A stretch of 64,000 bases of DNA from Candidatus Doudnabacteria bacterium (GTDB lineage: Bacteria > Patescibacteriota > Doudnabacteria > UBA920 > O2-02-FULL-48-8): assembly GCA_016182875.1 (NCBI GenBank), contig JACPFQ010000004.1, positions 259,515-323,514 on the forward strand, read 5' to 3'. Positions 2,889-61,429 of the stretch are shown here, piece after piece (the first letter of the stretch is position 1; each line of letters starts with the position of its first letter). The notes below the pieces were generated by a model, which searched no databases, was not told the origin of the DNA, and saw only the letters and a program-made list of their open reading frames with translations. The position numbers and the translations under genes were made by a program.

Positions 2889-2925
2889 GAATTTCTAATT
2901 ATTCTAATTTCTAATTGACCTAAAT
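2888..2925. repeat. AT-rich flank repeat (aatttctaatt / ctaattgacctaa motifs) on the 3' side of the four-helix-bundle gene
   Basis: Inverted relative to 3341-3380; the same aatttctaatt motif recurs at 24220-24245. Confidence 0.5.
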
Positions 2926-2956
2926 AATGTCTAAACCCCAAGCACGAATTTCTAAA

Positions 2957-3340
2957 TTATTTAACCTTTTTGTAAATAGCATTTTTGTAAATAGCATTAA
3001 AGATCAGGTTTAATTCTTTGGCTTCAGTCCAGAGTTTATCAGCCCTTTCTGCCATTTCAGGAACCGCGACCTTGATCATCCGCAGGAAATGCTTGCATTC
3101 TCGGGACTCTTTCTTGCAAATGCCGATTTTGTGCTTAAAGTCTGCTTTGCTTTCAGCATCATCAGCTTCGCAGTAATTAGCTCCGGTTGCGGTACCGCAT
3201 CTAACTAGCTGGTTTATTAAGGGCCTGGTTATATCATTCTTAGCCATTGCGCTGCAAAAGCGTATGACTTCTTCCCCGAACTTTGCAGTTCTTTCTTCAA
3301 GGTCATACTTTCGGCTATTAGGATTTTCGTTATTAGTCAT
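2957..3340 (-). CDS. four helix bundle protein (23S rRNA intervening-sequence protein family, TIGR02436-like)
   Basis: 127 aa; motifs EEVIRF, NQLVRCGTATGANYCEA, DF.HKIGICKKE match the family consensus. Confidence 0.8.
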   Translation of the reverse strand: MTNNENPNSRKYDLEERTAKFGEEVIRFCSAMAKNDITRPLINQLVRCGTATGANYCEADDAESKADFKHKIGICKKESRECKHFLRMIKVAVPEMAERADKLWTEAKELNLIFNAIYKNAIYKKVK

Positions 3341-3380
3341 TGTTTAGAAATTAGGTTAATTAGGTCAATTAGGTTAATTT
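3341..3380. repeat. AT-rich flank repeat (aattaggttaattaggtcaattaggttaatt), inverted partner of 2888-2925
   Basis: Contains the reverse complement of ctaattgacctaatt / aatttctaa seen on the other side of the gene. Confidence 0.5.
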
Positions 3381-9709: not shown

Positions 9710-10111
9710 ATGTTTAAAAATTCAGCCAAAAAGCTAGAAATATTCGTCATTATCTCAATTATTGCCATAATCGGGATTATTTATGCTTTAGCCAAACAGC
9801 CGGTGGTGGCCCCGAGAGTAAGCCAGGACCGCAACCAAACGGAGAGCATCCAGCAAGTTCCCCAAACTGCGATTCAATATCAGGGCGTAGACGGCCAAAA
9901 CGCCTTATCACTGCTTAAGGCTTATCATAATGTCGAGACAAAAGATTACGCGGGAATTGGGGAGTACGTGATCTCTATCGACGGGATTGCTCCGGACAGC
10001 AAACATTTTTGGGCGTTTTATGTGAATGAGAAACAAGCCGAGGTTGGAGCCGGGGCTTACGTCACCAAAAGCTCGGACGTAATTGAATGGAAACTGGAAG
10101 AAATTAAATAG
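9710..10111 (+). CDS. DUF4430-domain protein with N-terminal TM anchor (putative cobalamin-binding module)
   Basis: 133 aa; ALSLLKAYH...GEYVISIDGI...KHFWAFYVNEKQAEVGAGAYVTKSSDVIEWKL matches the DUF4430 pattern. Confidence 0.6.
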   Translation: MFKNSAKKLEIFVIISIIAIIGIIYALAKQPVVAPRVSQDRNQTESIQQVPQTAIQYQGVDGQNALSLLKAYHNVETKDYAGIGEYVISIDGIAPDSKHFWAFYVNEKQAEVGAGAYVTKSSDVIEWKLEEIK

Positions 10112-10131
10112 TTTGTAGTTGGTAGTTTGTA

Positions 10132-10692
10132 GTGAGTAGAAACTACAAACTACTCACTACGCACTACTCACTATCGATGCTCGCGTATTTTCTAATTTTT
10201 CTCGGAGCGTTTTTGCGAATCTTACCGCATCCGGCTAACTTCGCCCCGATTGCGGCCATTGCCTTGTTTGGCAGCGCTTATCTTAATAAAAAATTGGCGC
10301 TGATTCTGCCGCTTGTGGCCATGATTATCTCCGACTACTTCATCGGATTCGATTCGCTCAGCTCGCGTTTGACTGTTTACGGCACTTTTATTTTGGTCGG
10401 GCTTTTGGGATTCTGGCTGAGGGTCAAAAGAAGCCCGGGCCGGATTGTGGCCGCTTCCCTGGCCGGCTCCCTGATTTTTTATTTAATTACCAACTTCGCT
10501 TTTTTGTACCCTGCCGGTATGTACAGCCATGATTTGAACGGCGTGATGTCATCTTACATTAACGCTCTGCCGTTCTTTAGGAATACTTTGTTAGGCGACT
10601 TGTTTTACGTCAGCTTGTTTTTTGGAATTTATGAATTAGCATCGTACTATGTCAAGAATCATTCGAGTTCACGTTCAAACCCACGCGCATGA
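10132..10692 (+). CDS. small polytopic membrane protein (ECF S-component-like size and topology; possible vitamin transporter)
   Basis: 186 aa, about 5 hydrophobic helices; ends with TGA overlapping the next gene. Confidence 0.4.
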   Translation: MSRNYKLLTTHYSLSMLAYFLIFLGAFLRILPHPANFAPIAAIALFGSAYLNKKLALILPLVAMIISDYFIGFDSLSSRLTVYGTFILVGLLGFWLRVKRSPGRIVAASLAGSLIFYLITNFAFLYPAGMYSHDLNGVMSSYINALPFFRNTLLGDLFYVSLFFGIYELASYYVKNHSSSRSNPRA

Positions 10693-16301: not shown

Positions 16302-16335
16302 GTCACGTAACACGTATCATGTAACACGTAACAGA
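16302..16335. repeat. tandem ACGTAWCA octamer repeats (gtcacgtaacacgtatcatgtaacacgtaacag)
   Basis: The same octamer in tandem also at 58925-58955; related motifs at 42205-42270 and 45983-45992. Confidence 0.5.
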
Positions 16336-20788: not shown

Positions 20789-21076
20789 ATGAATATCAAA
20801 CCATTGGGCGACAGGGTGCTTGTAAAGCCTCTGACCCAAGAAGAAGTTACCAAGTCAGGGATCGTGCTGCCTGACACTGCCGAGAAGGAAAAAAAAGAGC
20901 AGGGTGAGGTCGTGGCCATCGGCGAAGGCGAGAAAATCAAGAAGCTCAATCTCAAAATCGGCGATAAAGTTTTGTTCGGCAAATACTCAGGTGATGACGT
21001 CGAGATGGGAGAAGGTACGAATAAGGTCGAATATAAATTCCTCAAAGATGAGGATATTTTGGGCATTGTTGAGTAA
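20789..21076 (+). CDS. groES: co-chaperonin GroES
   Basis: 95 aa; IKPLGDRVLVK...GIVLPDTAKEK...GEVVAVG. Confidence 0.9.
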   Translation: MNIKPLGDRVLVKPLTQEEVTKSGIVLPDTAEKEKKEQGEVVAIGEGEKIKKLNLKIGDKVLFGKYSGDDVEMGEGTNKVEYKFLKDEDILGIVE

Positions 21077-22822
<1,746 letters not shown>

Positions 22823-22860
22823 TCCACTAATAGACACGAATATAAAACCAATAAACACTA

Positions 22861-23277
22861 ATGGCAGAACTCTTACATAAAGAGTTATCATATATAGTGC
22901 ATGGTGCGGCTATTGAAGTTCGAAAAGATTTTGGGCCAGGACACAAAGAAAAACTATATCAAACAGCATTTGCGCAGGAACTCGACCGCCGAAGTATAAA
23001 TTTCAAACAAGAGCCAGCAGTAAATATCTATTCACCTAAGGATGGACAAAAAGTCGGGTTATATTGACCCGACTTTGTTGTTGACGGTAAAATACTTGTC
23101 GAAATGAAGGCTGAAAAATTCGTTAATCGTGATGAGATCAAAAGAATCTATGATTATTTGCGAAACAGTAAATATGAATTAGCCTATTTTATAAACTTCG
23201 CTTCACCTAAGCTCTACGTCAGACGCATCATCTTTACTAATGATAGAAAGCTTTCAATGCCCAGTAAGTTCGTGTAA
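22861..23277 (+). pseudogene. GxxExxY protein (PD-(D/E)xK-like, TIGR04256-like) with in-frame TGA at 23065-23067
   Basis: ELSYIVHGAAIEVRKDFGPGHKEKLYQTAFAQEL...VGLY[TGA]PDFVVDGKILVEMKA...AYFINFASPKLYVRRII reads through in a single frame. Confidence 0.7.
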
Positions 23278-23345
23278 ATTCGTCTATTATTAGTGTTAAT
23301 TAGTGGTTTATTTGGCTAAGTTAAGCCTTTTTTGAGGCCAAAGTC

Positions 23346-23481
23346 TTGACAGCGCCGGCAAAAAGGTATATACTTTTGAGTTCTTTTTAAAATCGCATAT
23401 TATGCCAATTTCGTAACAGGACCGAAGTTTGGCGTTAAAAATTATACAAAAACAGCTCCTGTATTACGAGCTGTTTTTGTT
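23346..23481 (+). ncRNA. candidate small RNA unit (promoter TTGACA-17-TATACT to intrinsic terminator, about 100 nt transcript)
   Basis: ttgaca at 23346, tatact at 23369; hairpin acagctc ctgtattac gagctgt plus T-run at 23452-23481; no ORF longer than 5 codons. Confidence 0.25.
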
Positions 23482-23614
23482 TCCACTATTCTGGGTACTA
23501 ACTTGATTTAGCCCGCCCGAACGTACCGTTCGGTACGGGCGGGCAGGGAAATCATTTTATTGCCCTCTTAAGCAATCAAGCCTAAGTACCCAGAATTGTG
23601 GAAGTAACAGCAAG
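23479..23614 (+). repeat. array leader repeat copy A (gtttccactattctgggtac ... gtacccagaattgtggaagtaacagcaag) with nested GC hairpin insert
   Basis: Inverted arms flank a conserved core; ends 43 bp before the ORF 23657 start. Confidence 0.7.
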
Positions 23615-24013: not shown

Positions 24014-24248
24014 TGCCAACAACCGGCGGCGCCGGAAACTGAGGGTAAGTAGGAGGAAGTTCCCAACCGCTTGGCGGCGGTCACAAATCATTTCGGATTA
24101 CTTCATTCTAAGTAATCCACCCAGAAGTGCGCCAACACTTCTCCTGTCCTGTGAGCTAGTACTCTAATACTGCGCCGTATTAGAGTGAAGCTTAGAGGAT
24201 AGGACATTAACAAACTTCTAATTTCTAATTACTAATTTCTAAAATTTT

Positions 24249-24340
24249 GTTTCCACGATTCTGGGCGTTAGTTAGAACTAAGGATGAATTCAGTAATACT
24301 GCCTTGAAAGTTAAATTGATACCCAGAATCGTGGAAGTGA
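24249..24340 (+). repeat. array leader repeat copy D (gtttccacgattctggg ... cccagaatcgtggaagtg)
   Basis: 13-bp perfect inverted arms; ends 40 bp before ORF 24380. Confidence 0.7.
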
Positions 24341-24379
24341 AAGATTGTCAGCACCTGACAAGGTGCAAAGTGAGGCAAC

Positions 24380-24613: not shown

Positions 24614-24738
24614 GGCCAACGACGGCACTATGAATGGAGGACACAGAATGCATTAAGTAACTCGCGAACCATCGCGAATTGAATAGTGGGGCCAGAGCAA
24701 GCCAAACCTCTGTCCCCACATCCCGTTTCCAATATTTT

Positions 24739-24833
24739 GTTTCCACTATTCTGGGTACTAACTTGATTTAGCAGGGAAATCATTTTATTGCCCTCTTAAG
24801 CAATCAAGCCTAAGCACCCAGAATTGTGGAATT
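24739..24833 (+). repeat. array leader repeat copy B
   Basis: gtttccactattctgggtactaacttgatttagcagggaaatcattttattgccctcttaagcaatcaagcctaagcacccagaattgtgga; about 95% identical to copy A without its insert. Confidence 0.75.
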
Positions 24834-25101
24834 GAAAGGGAGGATGGACATGACGCGTGCGCAGCGCAAGAGATACGAAAGGAAGATGCAGAAGAAGGCC
24901 GAACGGGGCCTGATTGCGCCGACTCTCGTGATCGTCGGCGGGCTGGCCTTGGCGCAGGTCGGTTACTCGTTGATCTCTGAGCCGTTCAGGATCATCGAGT
25001 TCATCGGCCTCGGCATCGTCGCTCTCGCCGGAGCCGATTGGTTGAGAGTATTCGTGTACATGTATCGCAACCGGCCGACCTACGAGGATCGGCTGCTCTA
25101 G
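24826..25101 (+). CDS. array ORF3: small membrane protein (probable start MDMTRAQ at 24847)
   Basis: RBS gggagg; basic N-terminus followed by two TM helices. Confidence 0.45.
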   Translation: MELKGRMDMTRAQRKRYERKMQKKAERGLIAPTLVIVGGLALAQVGYSLISEPFRIIEFIGLGIVALAGADWLRVFVYMYRNRPTYEDRLL

Positions 25102-25610: not shown

Positions 25611-25739
25611 AATAGTTAACAGCCACGAGCCAAGCTCGTGTCCGCCATTCTGGGTACTAACTTGATTTAGCAGGGAAATCAAATTATGCCCTCAAAGCAA
25701 TCAAGCCATTGCACCCAGAGTCGTGGAAGTAACAGCAAG
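25611..25739 (+). repeat. array leader repeat copy C (with upstream conserved module aatagttaacagccacgagccaagctcgtg)
   Basis: Same core as A/B; the upstream module is shared with copy G (26905-26945). Confidence 0.7.
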
Positions 25740-26158: not shown

Positions 26159-26204
26159 AGTGCATTTATTCTAGTCCTTTGAAAATTTCCAGTCAATATA
26201 TTTT

Positions 26205-26252
26205 GTTTCTACGGTTCTGGGCGTTAGAATTAGCACCCAGAATTGTGGAGGC
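26205..26252 (+). repeat. array leader repeat copy F (short form: gtttctacggttctgggcgttagaattagcacccagaattgtggaggc)
   Basis: Minimal inverted-arm version; ends 19 bp before ORF 26271. Confidence 0.65.
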
Positions 26253-26270
26253 AAACAAGCTTCTACTAAT

Positions 26271-30362: not shown

Positions 30363-32525
30363 ATGAAAACAAAAATAGGTTTGATAGGTGCGATAAGTTT
30401 GGTAGGTCTGATAGGTCTGATGGGTCCAGTAAGTCGGGTTGAGGCTTCGTCCATGACTCATCTAGTCATAAATCAAATCCAAGTCGAAGGCGACGGCGGG
30501 AGCAATGACGAATTCATAGAAATTTACAACCCAACCGGTTCATCTGTTTCTCTGAACGGCTGGTCTTTGCAGTATAAATCTTCAAGCGGCAACTTTCCGC
30601 TGACTTCGGGAAAGAAAAATTTGCCGGATGCCATCGTAAACCCGGGCGGATATTTTCTTGTCGCGCACACTTCATATAATGGTTTAGTTGCGGCCGATCA
30701 TACTCACTCAAGTTTCACGTTGTCCGGCTCAAGCAGCGGCGCGACGATTTTTCTAGTCAACAGCACCAGTTTTCTTGTTTCGGGCAGTGATTCTTCGATT
30801 GTCGACAAACTTGGTTACGGCAGTTCTTCCAGCAACTCTCCGGAAGGAACCGCCGCTTCCGTACCGGCGTCAGAACAAGCGCTTATCAGGGGTACAGACA
30901 CCGACAATAACGCTTCAGATTTTACTATTGTGGCTTCCAATCCGCGAAATTCCGCCACTGATTCGCCAACTCCAAGTCCATCTCCAGCTCCAAGTCCGTC
31001 ACCGACACCAAGCCCCACCTCCACTCCCCAAGCTTATTCGGTATCAGTCAAAATTTCGGAATTTATGCCAAACCCGGAGGGCACAGATAGCGGCGAGGAG
31101 TGGGTTGAGCTTTATAACGATTCTGTTTCTTATGTTGAACTCAAAGGCTGGAAGCTGGATGATTCTTCACCGGATGGCAAGATCGGAACCTCTGCTGTTT
31201 TGCTTTCGGAATACACCATACCGCCGAAAGAATATCTAGTAATAAGTTTGGACGAAAGCGCTTTTGCTTTGAACAACAGCACTGATTCCGTGCGTCTGAT
31301 TTGGCCGGATGGGCAAGTGGCCGACGAGGTCAGCTACGAAGAAGCAAAAGAGGAAGAGTCGTACGCCAAACAGCCGGATAACATTTTTGCCTGGACCAGC
31401 AAAGTTACCAGAGGAGCGGTGAATCAATTCAGCCAGGCAACAAGTCCGTTAGGAGCGAGCAATCCCGCTGATTTTGGGATTAAAATCAATGAGATATTTC
31501 CCAATCCCGAAGGCGCTGATTCCGGCAAGGAATGGGTCGAAATAAAAAATCAGGGCGATGCCGCAGTTTCTTTGGATGGCTGGATTATCGATGATGGCAA
31601 GGTCGAGGATAAAATTGGCGCAAGCGCTTATACGATCAGTGGCGTAACGCTTAATCCTGGTCAAGTCGTGCAGATTATTCTTCCTTCTGGCTCGTTTGCC
31701 CTCAATAATAGCGGCAAAGAAACTGTAAGGATTTTCAATTCTTTTAAAACATTGATTAACAGCGTCGACTATGAGAATGCCGAGGAAGATTTGAGTTTTG
31801 GGTATAACAATGATACCTGGTCCTGGATGAAGCCAACGCCAAATCAGGCCAATATCGAAGCTTCTGAGGTTGAGCAGAAAGAAAAAGCCCAAATATTTAT
31901 TAACGAAGTTTTTCCAGAGCCCGAAAAAGGGGTTGAAGAGTTCGTGGAGCTTGTAAATTTGGGTAATGCGGCGGTGAATCTTTCCGGCTGGACTATTGCC
32001 GATAATGTTTCTGAGCATAAGCTTGCAGACCTAATAATTGAATCGGGACAACTGCTCGTCATCAGTAAAAGCCAAAGCAAGCTGTCGTTTAATAATTACG
32101 GGCAGGAAGTAGTCAGAATAAGCGACGAGCAAGGGGAAGTTATTGACGAGGTCGAATATGAAGATGCGCCAAAAAATCAGTCATATAATCTTATTGAGGG
32201 AAGTTTTGTTTGGTCGGAATTGGTGACACCAGGAAAAGCCAATCGCGTCAAGGTTCAAGAACAGCCGGAGGTGGTGCAGGCTGTTGAAGAAACCCCGGAA
32301 GAAGTTTTGGGACCGGAAATTTTGGAGTTGTCTGAAGTTGCAAACGAGGAGTTGCCGATTGCTACTATCTCTGAAGCTTCAGATTCAGGCAAAGTGGCCG
32401 GCGCTTCCGTTTCCGCTCCCAAGACCGATGTTAGCAAAAAATTCGGCGGCGGTTCTTTGTGGTTTTTGGCGGGCTTTGCCGCGGGCATATTTATTTGTTA
32501 TATTTATCTAAGGAAATTCACCTAA
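30363..32525 (+). CDS. surface protein with four lamin-tail-domain (LTD) repeats, signal peptide and C-terminal TM anchor
   Basis: 720 aa; repeated I(N/S)E(I/F)(F/M)PNPEG.DSG.EWVEL.N...V.L.GW motif; PT-rich linker. Confidence 0.65.
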   Translation: MKTKIGLIGAISLVGLIGLMGPVSRVEASSMTHLVINQIQVEGDGGSNDEFIEIYNPTGSSVSLNGWSLQYKSSSGNFPLTSGKKNLPDAIVNPGGYFLVAHTSYNGLVAADHTHSSFTLSGSSSGATIFLVNSTSFLVSGSDSSIVDKLGYGSSSSNSPEGTAASVPASEQALIRGTDTDNNASDFTIVASNPRNSATDSPTPSPSPAPSPSPTPSPTSTPQAYSVSVKISEFMPNPEGTDSGEEWVELYNDSVSYVELKGWKLDDSSPDGKIGTSAVLLSEYTIPPKEYLVISLDESAFALNNSTDSVRLIWPDGQVADEVSYEEAKEEESYAKQPDNIFAWTSKVTRGAVNQFSQATSPLGASNPADFGIKINEIFPNPEGADSGKEWVEIKNQGDAAVSLDGWIIDDGKVEDKIGASAYTISGVTLNPGQVVQIILPSGSFALNNSGKETVRIFNSFKTLINSVDYENAEEDLSFGYNNDTWSWMKPTPNQANIEASEVEQKEKAQIFINEVFPEPEKGVEEFVELVNLGNAAVNLSGWTIADNVSEHKLADLIIESGQLLVISKSQSKLSFNNYGQEVVRISDEQGEVIDEVEYEDAPKNQSYNLIEGSFVWSELVTPGKANRVKVQEQPEVVQAVEETPEEVLGPEILELSEVANEELPIATISEASDSGKVAGASVSAPKTDVSKKFGGGSLWFLAGFAAGIFICYIYLRKFT

Positions 32526-56567: not shown

Positions 56568-56657
56568 TGCAAAAATCAAAGCTCAAAAATCAAAATGTAA
56601 TTAAAAATGCAAAGAGAATAATTTTTAATTTTGCTTTGTCATTTTGCATTTTGACTT

Positions 56658-57893
56658 TTGCATTTTGAATTTTTAAATATGCCTGAATTTTCATATATCG
56701 CAAGATCCAAAACCGGGAGCCTGGAACAGGATGTCATGACGGCCGTTTCCGAACGGGCTGTGGCCGACGCCTTGAGAGCCAAAGGATTGATGCCGACGTC
56801 CATCAAAGCTCTAAGAAAAAGCTTTGATTTGGAAATTTTAAAAGGATTTCTGACCCCGATCAGGCTGATCGAAAAAATAACCTTCATCAAAAATTTGTCC
56901 GTGATGCTTAAAGCCGGCTTGCCCGCGGCCAAAAGCCTCAAGATTTTATCAACGCAGACTACCAACCAAAAATTTGTCAAAGTCATTTCCGATTTGGCCA
57001 AAGCCGTGGAAGCCGGCACATCTTTGGCGGACGCCATGGGCAAGCACCCCGGAGTGTTTTCTCCAATTTTTGTCAGCATGGTCCGCGCTGGTGAAATCTC
57101 GGGCAATCTGGAAAAGAATCTCCTTTATTTGTCCGAACAAATGCAGCGGGACTACGACTTAATTTCCAAGGCCCGCGGCGCCTTGACTTACCCAATCGTG
57201 GTTTTAATCGCTTTGGGCATCGTCGGCTTCCTTATGTTCACCTTTGTCCTGCCCAAGCTGACCGATACTTTTAAAGACTTGAACGTTCCACTGCCGCTCA
57301 TGACCAGAGTCGTGATGGCGGTTGTGGACTTATTCGCGAAATATGGAATCTTCATCATTTTCCTCCTGATTTTATGCTTTTTTGGATTTATGTATTGGCG
57401 CAAGAGCGAAGGCGGGAAGAAAGTCATTCACATGGCGGTGTTTTATGTTCCCATTGGCAGCGGGATAGTCAAAAAAATCAACCTGGCCAGGTTTGTGCGC
57501 ACTTTTTCTTCGCTTATGAAAAGCGGCATGCCGATTGTGGAAGCGCTGGAAGTATCCTCCCATGTCGTCGGCAATATTTATTACCAAAAAGTGATTGCCG
57601 AGGCCGCGGCCAAAGTAAAAGTCGGCTCGCCGCTGGCCGCAAGCTTCAAAAAGCAGCCTAAATTGTTTCCGAATCTGGTGGTGGAAATGATGGAGGTCGG
57701 CGAGGAATCGGGCACGACGGATGAAGTCCTTTCTGAGGTTGCCGCGTTTTATGAATCCGAAGTCGACCAGACCATGAAAAATTTATCCTCGATTTTGGAA
57801 CCGGTTATTATGATGGTCATTGGAGCCGTGGTCGGGTTGCTGGCGGTGGCTCTGGTAACGCCGATTTATAACATTACGCAAAGCATAGGATGA
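56658..57893 (+). CDS. pilC: type IV pilus inner-membrane platform protein PilC (GspF family); probable start MPEFSY at 56679
   Basis: 411 aa; two GspF repeats (AGLPAAKSLKIL..., SGMPIVEALEV...). Confidence 0.85.
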   Translation: MHFEFLNMPEFSYIARSKTGSLEQDVMTAVSERAVADALRAKGLMPTSIKALRKSFDLEILKGFLTPIRLIEKITFIKNLSVMLKAGLPAAKSLKILSTQTTNQKFVKVISDLAKAVEAGTSLADAMGKHPGVFSPIFVSMVRAGEISGNLEKNLLYLSEQMQRDYDLISKARGALTYPIVVLIALGIVGFLMFTFVLPKLTDTFKDLNVPLPLMTRVVMAVVDLFAKYGIFIIFLLILCFFGFMYWRKSEGGKKVIHMAVFYVPIGSGIVKKINLARFVRTFSSLMKSGMPIVEALEVSSHVVGNIYYQKVIAEAAAKVKVGSPLAASFKKQPKLFPNLVVEMMEVGEESGTTDEVLSEVAAFYESEVDQTMKNLSSILEPVIMMVIGAVVGLLAVALVTPIYNITQSIG

Positions 57894-58921: not shown

Positions 58922-60316
58922 ATGAATCACGTATCACGTAACACGTATCAAACAGGTCAAATCATAATCATTGCCGGCGTGTTCATGCTGATTTTGATTA
59001 TCCTCATAACCGGTTTAGTTTCTTATGCCGGCGTGCAAATCAAAGGACATAGGCAAGCGCTTTCGCGCGTGCAGGGTCTAAATATCGCCGAAGCCGCAAT
59101 TGAATTGGCTGTCTGGAAGCTTAATAATCAGCAAGGTTATACCGGCGAGACAGGCACGGCCTATGGGAATGGCACGTTTAACGTCACGATTACAAATTTA
59201 AGCGGCAATCAGAAATTGGTTAAGGTCGATTCATTCGTGCCCAACGCCGCCAACCCTCAGGCAAAACGAACAGTGCAGGTTACGGTAACGCTAGGGGCAA
59301 CCAACATTTCGTTCAACTATGGAGTACAGGTCGACTCGGGTGGAATAGAAATGGAAAACAATTCGCAGGTCACGGGCAACGTTTATTCCAACGGCAATAT
59401 TATCGGCGACAATTCCGGCGTCAGGATCGCCGGCACGGCAATCGCCGCAGGCGCCACTGGCAAAATCGATGAAATCAACGACATTGACGGCGATGCTGCC
59501 GCCCATTTTTTGGAAGATGTCTCGGTTGACGGGAGCACAAATTCAGCAAGCCTGCTTCAAGCCACGGTTGGGGGGAACGCCGTTTCCGACAGCATTTCCG
59601 ACTGCACCATTGGAGGGAATGCCACCTACGATACAAAAACAAGCTGTACCATCGGCGGCACGCAGACGACGCCCAACCCCGCCAATTTCGACGACCCGGA
59701 TGTATTGTCTCTGCCTATTTCTGATGAGCAAATCCAAGATTGGAAGGATGAGGCGGAAGCCGGCGGTGTGGTAACCAGCCAGACCATCGACGGCACGGCT
59801 TCCCTCGGGCCCAAGAAAATTAACGGCAATTTGACAATCACTAACGGGGCGACGCTGACCATGACCGGAACGATTTGGGTTACCGGCAATATCAGCATCG
59901 ATAATAACGCGACAGTCGTGCTTGATCCGAGCTACGGCAGTCTAAGCGGTGTAATTGTCAATGATGGCTGGATACACTTTGACAACAACGGCCTTATCGG
60001 CGGTTCGGGAACGGCCGGGAGCTATCTCATGTTTCTCAATACCTTGGCCTGCACCGGTTCATCGGGCTCAGGGTGTACGCACCACAGCGCGGCCGTGGAC
60101 CTGCATAACAATGTTGGAGCGGCAATTGTTTATGTCAAAAGCGGTCTCGTTCATCTTCACAACGGGGTCAACGTCAAGGAACTGACGGCGTATAAGATTC
60201 ACTTGAGCAATACCGCCAGTGTAACTTATGAGTCTGGTTTGGCCAACGCCCAATTTTCTTCGGGCCCGGGCGGGGGCTGGGAAGTCTTAGATGGAACGTG
60301 GCAGCTACTTCAATAA
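58922..60316 (+). CDS. PilX-like minor pilin / pilus-associated protein with beta-helix-like repeats
   Basis: 464 aa; N-terminal hydrophobic TGQIIIIAGVFMLILIILITGLVSYA; G/N/T-rich repeats; first 12 codons overlap the ACGTAWCA octamer array. Confidence 0.5.
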   Translation: MNHVSRNTYQTGQIIIIAGVFMLILIILITGLVSYAGVQIKGHRQALSRVQGLNIAEAAIELAVWKLNNQQGYTGETGTAYGNGTFNVTITNLSGNQKLVKVDSFVPNAANPQAKRTVQVTVTLGATNISFNYGVQVDSGGIEMENNSQVTGNVYSNGNIIGDNSGVRIAGTAIAAGATGKIDEINDIDGDAAAHFLEDVSVDGSTNSASLLQATVGGNAVSDSISDCTIGGNATYDTKTSCTIGGTQTTPNPANFDDPDVLSLPISDEQIQDWKDEAEAGGVVTSQTIDGTASLGPKKINGNLTITNGATLTMTGTIWVTGNISIDNNATVVLDPSYGSLSGVIVNDGWIHFDNNGLIGGSGTAGSYLMFLNTLACTGSSGSGCTHHSAAVDLHNNVGAAIVYVKSGLVHLHNGVNVKELTAYKIHLSNTASVTYESGLANAQFSSGPGGGWEVLDGTWQLLQ

Positions 60317-60321
60317 TCCAC

Positions 60322-60397
60322 GAAAGCACACGAATATTAAACTAATAGCCACTAACTGTTCGTGTAAATTCGTCTGATATTAGTGTTAATTAGTGGT
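60322..60397. repeat. palindromic element (cacgaatattaaactaatagccactaa...ttcgtgtaaattcgtctgatattagtgttaattagtgg) = empty version of the inverted repeats flanking the GxxExxY gene
   Basis: 60343-60392 is about 90% identical to 23262-23310; left part resembles 22823-22868. Confidence 0.55.
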
Positions 60398-60410
60398 ATA
60401 ATTAAAGCGT

Positions 60411-61070
60411 ATGTTATCGCTATTTGGAAACAAAAAAATCAAAGCATTCGGGCTGGATATTTCTGACGCTTCGATTAAGCTCATGAGCCTAAAGCCCCAT
60501 GAGCAAAGCCTCATTCCTGAGGCTTTTACCAATGTTCCCCTGCCGCCGAAAATCATCAATAATCACCTGATTGCCAGTGAACAGAGGCTGGCCGAGAGCA
60601 TCAACTACGCTTTGAGCAAAGCCGGCAAGCTCGATACCAAATACGTGGTGGCTTCTTTGCCGGAGGCAAGATCATTTGTCCGCTTGTTGAACATGGCCAA
60701 AATGTCTGACTCTGAAATTGAAGGCGCCATTCCCTGGGAGTTGGAGCAGGATATTCCAATGCCGGTCGATCAGGTTTACTTGGATTGGGAAGTGGTTTCG
60801 AAGTCGGATGACAAGCTCGCGGTTTTGGTCGCGGCCACCCAGAAAGATTACGTCGATTCATTGATTGATACTTTGAAGCTCGCCCGCCTCAAACCCGTGG
60901 CGCTTGAATTGGAATCTCAGGCAGTGGCGCGCTGTCTGATAAGAAGGCAAGATGCCGCTGAGACGGTCTTGATCCTCGACATAGCCAGCGTGCAGACGAG
61001 CTTCATTAAAGCATTGCGCGAAACCTCTCAATATCGGCCGCGGAAGCGGAAAAGCTCAAAAAAGACATAG
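60411..61070 (+). CDS. pilM: type IV pilus assembly protein PilM, N-terminal fragment
   Basis: FGLDISDASIKLMSL actin-like ATPase N-terminus; the reading frame breaks after ...ILDIASVQTSFIKA (about 61010). Confidence 0.65.
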   Translation: MLSLFGNKKIKAFGLDISDASIKLMSLKPHEQSLIPEAFTNVPLPPKIINNHLIASEQRLAESINYALSKAGKLDTKYVVASLPEARSFVRLLNMAKMSDSEIEGAIPWELEQDIPMPVDQVYLDWEVVSKSDDKLAVLVAATQKDYVDSLIDTLKLARLKPVALELESQAVARCLIRRQDAAETVLILDIASVQTSFIKALRETSQYRPRKRKSSKKT

Positions 61071-61111
61071 GCCTGATTTCGGAAAACAAGCGCAACGTCA
61101 GAGAGGCGATT

Positions 61112-61429
61112 TTGCCGATTTTAGACAGTATAGTCGACGAAATCAAAAATGTTGTCCGGTTTCACGAAGATCACAATGTCAATCACAAGCCGATCAATAA
61201 GATTATGCTTTGCGGCGGCTCGGCGAGGCTGTTGGGCATCGCTGATTATATTTCCGCCCGCATCAACTTGGGCAGCAGCAAGCCTTTAGGAAAGGTTCAA
61301 TTGGGGGACCCGTGGACTAATTTATCAATAACGAAAATGGATAAATCCGTTCCCTTAACGCCCGAATCCGCTTTAGGCTTTGCCACGGCAATCGGGTTGG
61401 CGCTGCGAGGACTGTCAGATGCCGGTTAA
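61112..61429 (+). CDS. pilM: PilM C-terminal fragment (in a different frame)
   Basis: ENKRNVREAILPILDSIVDEI...IMLCGGSARLLGIADYI matches the PilM C-terminal half; an intermediate piece IARNLSISAAEAEKLKKDIGLIS lies in a third frame (61012-61080). Confidence 0.65.
   Translation: MPILDSIVDEIKNVVRFHEDHNVNHKPINKIMLCGGSARLLGIADYISARINLGSSKPLGKVQLGDPWTNLSITKMDKSVPLTPESALGFATAIGLALRGLSDAG

Follow-up and report, generated by a model that had tools for sequence, protein, structure and literature searches.

Several kinds of small element built around inverted repeats have been described in bacteria. The closest to the locus considered here are the intervening sequences (IVSs) of 23S rRNA in Coxiella, Leptospira and Salmonella, in which terminal inverted repeats surround an open reading frame (ORF) of ~120 amino acids encoding an S23p / PF05635 protein (PMC4990558). 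The ORF tends to decay while the arms persist, and the elements are viewed as selfish, with a mechanism of mobility that is not known. In the Coxiella IVS, RNase III cuts the terminal inverted repeats, the loop contains the S23p ORF, and a heptamer (GACAGAT), repeated in tandem a variable number of times, is found upstream of the ORF (PMC4990558). Here we describe an arrangement of similar outline in a 64-kb stretch of DNA from a Candidatus Doudnabacteria bacterium (contig JACPFQ010000004.1; hereafter the window). A gene of the GxxExxY family, predicted to encode a PD-(D/E)XK nuclease, lies directly downstream of groES-groEL between two inverted arrays of a 7-bp unit (site A), and a pair of such arrays without a gene (a solo) lies upstream of pilM.

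Other known elements share individual features with this locus. Transposable elements of the miniature inverted-repeat type (MITEs), Correia/NEMIS elements, repetitive extragenic palindromic (REP) sequences and REPINs with their REP-associated tyrosine transposases (RAYTs), and Rickettsia palindromic elements (RPEs) are likewise short intergenic inverted-repeat elements found beside stop codons, with solo, non-autonomous copies (PMC10969869). RPEs also insert in frame into protein genes, the insert being retained in the protein, and RAYT genes have their own flanking repeats in inverted orientation and are inherited vertically (PMC10969869). The homing endonuclease genes that inteins and group I introns carry are comparable in placing a small nuclease gene inside conserved regions of conserved genes with the frame preserved; as with these, GxxExxY copies from different host genes are interleaved in similarity.

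The GxxExxY element is intergenic after groEL and before pilM, or in frame within protein genes, rather than in rRNA; its cargo is a PD-(D/E)XK nuclease rather than a four-helix-bundle protein, and its arms are poorly complementary. Unlike the single terminal inverted repeats of the MITE, REP and RPE groups, the arms are arrays of phased 7-bp units, no target-site duplication is seen, the enzyme is neither a DDE nor a Y1 transposase, and in-frame copies carry a whole folded nuclease domain. Unlike inteins and introns, GxxExxY copies have no Hint domain, no splice-junction residues and no intron RNA (Rfam), the insert is apparently kept, and the flanking repeat arrays are a feature of their own. 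The constituent parts resemble known kinds, namely IVSs, MITE/REP elements, RPEs and homing endonucleases. In the literature searched, there was no description of GxxExxY as the cargo of array-flanked elements, of the phased-heptamer arm design as a family trait, or of essential genes that hold a nuclease domain in frame with neither intein nor intron. We consider it somewhat better than an even chance (a probability of about 0.55) that the locus is a selfish element of compact form, the arms of which serve its nuclease as recognition sites at the DNA level, and which has long been resident after groEL, has recently had its cargo inactivated, and has a solo derivative upstream of pilM.

A nuclease gene between phased repeat arms

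The coordinates of the element and of related features are collected in Table 1. The right-arm units are the reverse complement of the left-arm units, and within both arms the units are spaced by 10/11/10 bp. The arms are closely fitted to the genes around them: the left arm begins 1 nt past the groEL stop codon, its last unit donates the first two bases (AT) of the cargo ATG, and the cargo TAA falls between units 1 and 2 of the right arm. Aligned as inverted repeats of 42 nt each (22820-22861 and 23269-23310), the arms are 74% complementary. The original prediction that related inverted repeats bracket the gene is correct in that the repeats are real; they do not form a simple hairpin, being phased heptamer arrays with non-complementary spacers and unit centres.

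Table 1. Positions of the element, its genes and related features, numbered within the window
Feature	Position	Strand	Details
Left arm	22823-22862		four units CAC[G/T]AAT: CACTAAT 22825-31, CACGAAT 22835-41, AACCAAT 22846-52 (degenerate), CACTAAT 22856-62
Right arm	23268-23306		four units ATT[C/A]GTG: TTCGTG 23269-74, ATTCGTC 23278-84, ATTAGTG 23289-95, ATTAGTG 23299-305
GxxExxY / PF13366 PD-(D/E)XK nuclease frame (cargo)	22861-23277	+	138 codons, interrupted once; ATG 22861-63, TAA 23275-77
In-frame TGA	23065-23067	+	replaces Arg69 (CGG in orthologues); next base C
Palindrome around the TGA	23050-23076		perfect, 10 bp, AAAGTCGGGT / ACCCGACTTT (codons KVG + PDF); kept only in the groEL-linked clade
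Solo element	60318-60396		left arm 60319-60356, right arm 60359-60396, 2 nt apart, no cargo
groES	20789-21076		upstream of the cargo frame
groEL	21176-22822		TAA 22820-22, 38 nt before the cargo ATG
Second cargo element, PF05635 23S_rRNA_IVP (four-helix bundle)	2892-3379	-	gene 3340-2957, E 6e-10; arms CCTAATT 3348-3379, AATTAGA 2892-2926
Solo pair of inverted arrays	10109-10174		unit TAGTTnG / ACTACnC, period 7; between two genes; long stem, z = -5.6

The arms are 80-87% identical to those of an orthologous locus (L001; left arm 87%), compared with 53% at third codon positions, and they are therefore under selection as nucleotide sequence. Where they differ from L001 and a second orthologous locus, L002, the changes cluster at the middle base of the units (Fisher p about 0.003). 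When the arms are aligned as a simple hairpin, mismatches fall on 14 of 16 unit centres in this clade. The joined site-A arms fold with z = -3.4. Rfam returned nothing above gathering thresholds at site A or at the solo site.

The same architecture is found across the family. It was counted at 81 loci, comprising the window and 80 loci from genomes of relatives in the Candidate Phyla Radiation (CPR), Planctomycetota, WOR-3 and Omnitrophota, with the degenerate unit [CG][AG]C-N-[AG]A[CT]. The left flank holds 3.16 matches per 100 nt on the forward strand (background 0.38) and the right flank 2.09 on the opposite strand (background 0.34), whereas matches in the wrong orientation stay at background; the enrichment at GxxExxY genes is thus about 8-fold and orientation-specific. 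Unit spacing peaks at 10 and 12 bp, and the units themselves vary by lineage (CAC[G/T]AAT, CACGGAT, CAC[T/G]GAC, CGC[A/G]GAC). When the two arms are placed in common register, the non-central unit positions are 92% complementary, a value that arises partly by construction, as against 37% for the centres and 44% for the spacers, and G-U pairs are not in excess over A-C among the mismatches. The joined arms fold better than shuffled sequences across loci (median z = -4.8), as is expected of any inverted motif arrays. Taken at the level of sequence, the periodic repetition, the conserved 3+3 positions and the unpaired centres point to recognition of a duplex motif and not to a selected RNA stem. 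Two pairing schemes were considered and rejected. A simple conserved hairpin as the selected feature is at odds with the unpaired centres and spacers and the lack of a G-U excess, although folding potential exists. An interleaved, pseudoknot-like pairing of the arms (u1:r2, u2:r1, u3:r4, u4:r3) fitted the solo, L002 and L001 but not L010, L013 and L016, and was also sterically implausible for the solo.

Between the arms, the cargo frame has one in-frame TGA as its sole defect (translation VGLY*PDFVV). Once the stop is replaced, the product is recognised by Pfam PF13366 (PDDEXK_3; 88.8 bits against a cut-off of 22, E 4e-25, covering positions 2-117 of the 117 in the profile) and, over the full profile, by NCBIfam TIGR04256 (GxxExxY; 92.7 bits against a cut-off of 35, E 2e-26). 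No variation is seen at E51, D71, E81 or K83 across aligned sets of 32-35 relatives. The window frame encodes all four residues, and the catalytic three (D71, E81, K83) come 3′ of the TGA. A functional member has an unbroken reading frame, and the window copy, with its TGA at codon 69, does not. The AlphaFold model of a 90% identical orthologue (P0001) is a confident one (pLDDT 91). Foldseek searches of the PDB gave matches at superfamily level only, to generic PD-(D/E)XK folds (TM <= 0.52; lambda exonuclease, RecE, Cas4 and splicing endonuclease). The best sequence match among solved structures is T7 endonuclease I (PDB 3CAE, 1M0D), a four-way-junction resolvase; the likeness, weak at E about 0.01, spans the catalytic D, E, K motif (Y-x-PDF...VE-x-K), aligning YtPDF...VEtK with YrPDF...VElK of the T7 enzyme. 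No PADLOC defence-system model matched P0001 or the PF05635 protein of the window. The family is large, with 14,536 clusters at 50% identity matching at E <= 0.001, and essentially uncharacterised, in so far as its name is absent from titles and abstracts in the literature searched and the one mention examined is incidental.

The TGA stands two codons before the catalytic Asp. Codon 69 encodes Arg in L001 (90% amino acid identity) and in L002/L003 (78%), the residue is R, K or Q among 32 aligned relatives, and the change from CGG requires two substitutions. TGA is an ordinary terminator in this genome: it ends 9 of 44 long window ORFs, including complete DUF6580, FkbM, NusB and PilC domains and ATGA gene overlaps, it is absent from the interior of the long conserved window ORFs (GroEL of 548 aa, ORFs of 2377 and 1242 aa), and the sole tRNA-Gly found has the anticodon tcc. 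The genome uses the standard code; codes 4 and 25 are ruled out. Among Logan contigs, L164 (SRR12113424, present in 3 samples) is 100% identical over window positions 21916-23504, TGA included; because this contig is independent, the allele is real at assembly level and not a one-off assembly error. An exact look-up of the window GroEL in public assemblies gave no record; the 68-aa fragment, in contrast to GroEL, was found. Selenocysteine recoding was considered and rejected, since the column is Arg/Lys/Gln and the palindrome lies across the TGA, rather than 3′ of it as a SECIS hairpin would, and is also present in CGG orthologues. The palindrome was likewise rejected as a recoding signal, being absent outside the groEL-linked clade; it is most simply a coincidence at codon level (KVG / PDF).

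These results show a nonsense change rather than recoding, and one that is recent relative to the age of the gene, because the rest of the frame is intact and divergence from L001 at nonsynonymous sites (dN) is as low as for groEL while synonymous sites are saturated. The original prediction of a 138-codon GxxExxY frame intact but for a recent nonsense TGA is therefore upheld, as is its view, for which it had asked for a tally of TGA, that recoding is unlikely. Stops at the equivalent codon have also arisen in independent lineages (L040, TAA, and L057), as has one a codon earlier (L041, TAA), each followed by C. A second coincidence is seen at codon 114, after ..NF (L042, TGA; L053, TAA). The only remaining stops among the GxxExxY relatives are at codon 40 of L029 and, in addition to the one already named, in L057. 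Deletions and fragments are seen at other loci.

Residence after groEL and occupancy of related sites

An orthologue of the GxxExxY gene lies directly after groES-groEL in L001 and L002, in conserved synteny. Synonymous divergence of the window from L001 has reached saturation (pS 0.78), whereas the dN of the cargo is 0.087, compared with 0.093 for groEL; within the cargo, dN is 0.049 after the stop and 0.123 before it. By these comparisons, the gene was under strong purifying selection for a long time before the nonsense change. Because three relatives with saturated synonymous sites share the same post-groEL site, the gene is not a recent insertion, and the groEL-linked copy has long been inherited vertically. 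The flanks are alignable among orthologous loci, including a promoter-like site, TTGACA-17-TATACT, at 23346-74.

This near-consensus promoter is followed, up to 23460, by a conserved non-coding stretch (TTTAAAA..CGCATA.TATGCC..ATTCGTAACAGGACCGAA), and both are kept in L001, L002, L085-87, L090 and L094, whether the element is present or absent. The stretch may be an unannotated small RNA or leader; Rfam gave only sub-threshold noise in this region downstream of the element.

Copies with a CAC[G/T]AAT-type unit are found at two places only in the window, site A and the solo. The solo is placed between the TAA of an ORF (58922-60316) and the pilM start (60411), with a TATAAT (60397-60402) directly 3′. 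Like site A, it opens with TAATCCAC, the TAA of which is the stop of the upstream gene. Its right arm agrees with that of site A at 37/39 positions (BLAST 38/40, E 2e-13) and its left arm at 35/45 in register. The right arms of the two sites are more alike than orthologous arms between genomes, which argues for copying or gene conversion within the genome. The solo, 79 nt long, shares with MITEs its terminal inverted repeats, its lack of coding capacity and its kinship to a cargo-bearing element. The original prediction had left open whether positions 60322-60397 were an empty or a solo site. Another member of the Doudnabacteria (L016) has a full GxxExxY element at this position, and an intact pilM of 360 aa follows it directly; the window site is therefore a solo and not an empty site.

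The window pilM (60411-61400) is itself broken when compared with the intact PilM of L016. About 22 codons (IIDGGVLEYTSSIPVAGNAFTE) have been lost near 61005 and the frame is shifted, the C-terminal two fifths resuming in another frame, to about 61400. By this alignment, the lesion is a deletion of about 65 nt and not a homopolymer slip. With the GxxExxY TGA, at least two genes are thus disrupted within 64 kb.

After groEL, filled, solo and empty states all exist among relatives. Gene and arms are both present in the window, L001 and L002. In L084-87 and L096-99 the gene is absent, and a terminator hairpin stands between a left array and an inverted right array. A plain terminator without arrays, the empty groEL site that had been proposed as something to search for, is found in L090, L089, L091 and L093. 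The gene-less arrays have different units: AGTAAT in L084 (the GroEL of which is 89% identical) and L085, TACGAA in L096-98, GGTATCG in L099 and, with the order reversed, TTAGTG/CACTAA in L086/87. They form long stems interrupted by internal loops at periodic intervals (z = -6 to -9). In a survey of the post-groEL site of 80 metagenomic GroEL relatives, GxxExxY was found in none (0/80).

An arrangement from which a solo might arise is seen in about ten loci, including L005, L012, L014, L019, L029, L039 and L051, where an extra left-type array lies between the gene and the right array. In L005 the gene follows one left arm and precedes another, after which comes the right arm; the left arrays are direct repeats of each other (41/46 identical), and the second begins with TAATCCAC, supplying the cargo's stop codon. 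Recombination between such direct arrays would delete the gene and leave a solo; run in reverse, it would bring a circle of gene plus arm into a solo.

Many relatives have the complete module of left array, nuclease domain and right array in frame within a host gene (L063-L083, proteins P0277-P0328), and PF13366 splits the host domains in Pfam annotation. In RecG the insert lies between DEQHRFGV and (M/S)ATPIPRTL, motifs II and III, in LepA between GITIK and LNLIDTPGH of the G domain, and in SecA in the motor domain; further hosts are GatB, asparagine synthase, GT4 glycosyltransferases, a Wzy-type O-antigen ligase and a P-type ATPase. At the junctions, the arrays are translated into low-complexity peptides, for example TQTDTQTNAD ... 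SASVQRLSA, and the LepA of L083 additionally holds an in-frame solo array pair (ADARTNADKTQTNAEGSRHSSVKSASQ). The nested domains of recG, lepA and secA are 55-70% identical to one another, with no grouping by host. Some further copies are joined in frame to the N-terminal end of LeuD or of proteins anchored in the membrane, the right array encoding the hydrophobic segment in the latter. At the nested copies, no Hint domain or intron was found and only PF13366 lies between the host-domain halves; because the frame also continues on both sides, the insert seems to stay in the mature protein. The literature searched held no relevant account of in-frame nuclease insertions in CPR genes. One source labels a nested-type product (P0121) as 'GxxExxY protein, partial'.

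The window also contains an element of the same design with another cargo and another unit, the PF05635 element of Table 1. By analogy, it links the GxxExxY module to the classical 23S rRNA intervening sequences, and the Coxiella heptamer fits the unit class of the GxxExxY arms. A survey of CPR rRNA insertions names LAGLIDADG, GIY-YIG and 23S_rRNA_IVP, its main text being without GxxExxY or PDDEXK (PMC11270868). No rRNA adjoins GxxExxY in 20 loci and none was found in the window (Rfam); the element is not an insertion in a 23S helix, since one copy has groEL and a promoter as its neighbours and the other a pilus-locus ORF and pilM. There are 33 short-unit arrays in the window, compared with 2-8 in shuffled sequences, so that palindromic arrays are a trait of this genome in general.

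Mechanism and competing explanations

In the selfish-element reading, two inverted arms of ~40 bp, each of four phased 7-bp units, delimit a GxxExxY gene of ~130 codons that starts and stops at the innermost units. The cargo would probably be co-transcribed with groES-groEL, because it sits in the 3′ region of the operon with no terminator between. The arms would be conserved as duplex-DNA motifs rather than as a base-paired stem, and a nuclease, or a complex containing it, would recognise the ends of the element through them. Maintenance or copying could then proceed through homing, gene conversion or transposition, and arms that persist after cargo loss would remain as MITE-like solos, such as that at 60318-60396. 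At site A, the CGR-to-TGA change at Arg69 truncates the protein, leaving the cargo dead or, at best, subject to rare read-through. We infer both the mobility of the element and the binding or cutting of its arms by the nuclease from sequence comparison.

Several points weigh against this reading. No movement has been seen directly, and mobility, although plausible, rests on differences in occupancy and on the many insertion contexts; the original description of the gene as cargo of a small mobile element is to that extent sustained, but the groEL copy is no recent insertion. That copy is old and vertical with dN/dS far below 1, which is unusual for a purely selfish nuclease and would fit a domesticated gene equally well. 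No target-site duplication could be defined, as no direct repeat flanks site A or the solo, and no precise empty-versus-filled junction was obtained, no pair among the 80 GroEL relatives being close enough to place the element ends. The folding of the joined arms and the terminator-capped stems of the gene-less arrays leave room for a role as RNA or as a cruciform. The sequence of the unit varies widely from locus to locus, also inside the window, and one protein cannot read all of these versions. Finally, the structural matches reach superfamily level only, and that to T7 endonuclease I is weak.

The most serious competitor, which we regard as unlikely, places the function of the arms in RNA, as in an IVS: they would pair in the transcript, to be cut by RNase III or to act as a stabiliser or terminator at the 3′ end of groESL mRNA, with the cargo start sequestered and the nuclease a passenger. 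The RNase III-cut repeats, loop ORF and same-class heptamers of the Coxiella IVS (PMC4990558) are precedents for such a role, the PF05635 gene of the window has analogous arms, the gene-less arrays of relatives extend terminator hairpins, and joined arms fold better than shuffles. Against this, unit centres and spacers are not complementary, G-U pairs are not above A-C among mismatches, the window solo folds weakly (z = -1.5 and -2.5), and periodic repetition within an arm is unneeded for a hairpin; moreover, the arms are kept in the SecA, GatB and RecG frames, where cleavage of the mRNA would harm. Less probable still is a domesticated partnership of the REPIN-RAYT type, in which GxxExxY would be a vertically inherited, host-beneficial caretaker nuclease that spreads or maintains its cognate arrays, the arrays being the replicating entity. 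Vertical synteny, strong purifying selection on the cargo, inverted flanking repeats of its own, solos directly 3′ of stop codons and the abundance of short-unit arrays in the window are all in keeping with this proposal. However, the nuclease is unrelated to Y1 transposases, the window arrays have many different units with the GxxExxY type at two sites only, and GxxExxY genes are often multi-copy and nested in genes, unlike RAYTs.

On the separate question of the TGA, low-level read-through at UGA-C could provide full-length nuclease, the stop being tolerated or even selected as a throttle. The frame beyond the stop is intact and has the lower dN, the TGA is followed by C, stops have arisen independently at the same codon or one codon earlier, and one report (PMC7918605) describes conserved in-frame stops with read-through as frequent in bacteria. 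We nevertheless consider this improbable: the closest orthologues have a plain Arg codon, the second stop in L057 means that this copy decays, other loci show deletions and fragments, the four events give only a rough p of about 0.01, and no read-through signal is known for the family. A sequencing error, or a code in which TGA encodes an amino acid, is very improbable indeed. The broken pilM of the same window could be taken to favour an artefact, and otherwise nothing beyond the single codon does; the pilM lesion, however, is a deletion and not a slip, the independent contig is identical, two substitutions separate TGA from CGG, and the use of TGA as terminator, together with its absence from long conserved ORFs, speaks against an altered code.

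Other repeats in the window and significance

Further gene-boundary arrays with units of their own (CACGTA at two places; TTCTAAT; CATTTTG) lie at 16303-16333, 24216-24243, 56627-56674 and 58926-58951. A different palindromic element of ~100-140 nt is present in five copies (23474-23612, 24244-24343, 24734-24838, 25633-25735 and 26200-26257) among small ORFs of unknown function. Its sequence is GTTTCCAC[T/G]ATTCTGGGTACTAAC ... TACCCAGAATTGTGGAAG, the first copy encloses a strong GC hairpin (GCCCGCCCGAACGTACCGTTCGGTACGGGCGGGC), and no Rfam family matched it at threshold. At 30375-30425, six copies of a 9-nt repeat (GATAGGTNN) encode the hydrophobic N-terminus (IGLIGAISLVGLIGLMG) of a 720-aa lamin-tail-domain protein. 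An AdoCbl-II (cobalamin) riboswitch matches at 1391-1445 on the minus strand (42.8 bits; Rfam gathering threshold 36.5).

It is a tentative proposal, to which we give rather less than even odds, that GxxExxY genes and their paired phased-heptamer arrays form a new class of compact mobile element, a counterpart, in protein genes and intergenic regions, of the 23S IVS. Such a class would carry a PD-(D/E)XK cargo without an intron or intein, its stop-free arms would allow in-frame life in SecA, GatB, RecG and LepA, and its relics would be MITE-like solos; the recurrent stop at codon 68/69 would then perhaps be a selected throttle.

For the family, the locus shows that a GxxExxY gene belongs to a module of which phased, conserved repeat arms are also part. 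The tie to elements encoding four-helix-bundle IVS proteins may provide a handle on the nature and spread of the 23S intervening sequences, a question dating from about 1990. The in-frame copies in SecA, GatB, RecG and LepA would represent a new form of parasitism on essential genes by a nuclease gene, one that involves neither RNA nor protein splicing, and they bear on annotation, as nested genes are currently labelled "GxxExxY protein, partial". For the CPR bacteria, with their tiny genomes, these elements would imply an unexpected load of palindromic selfish DNA.

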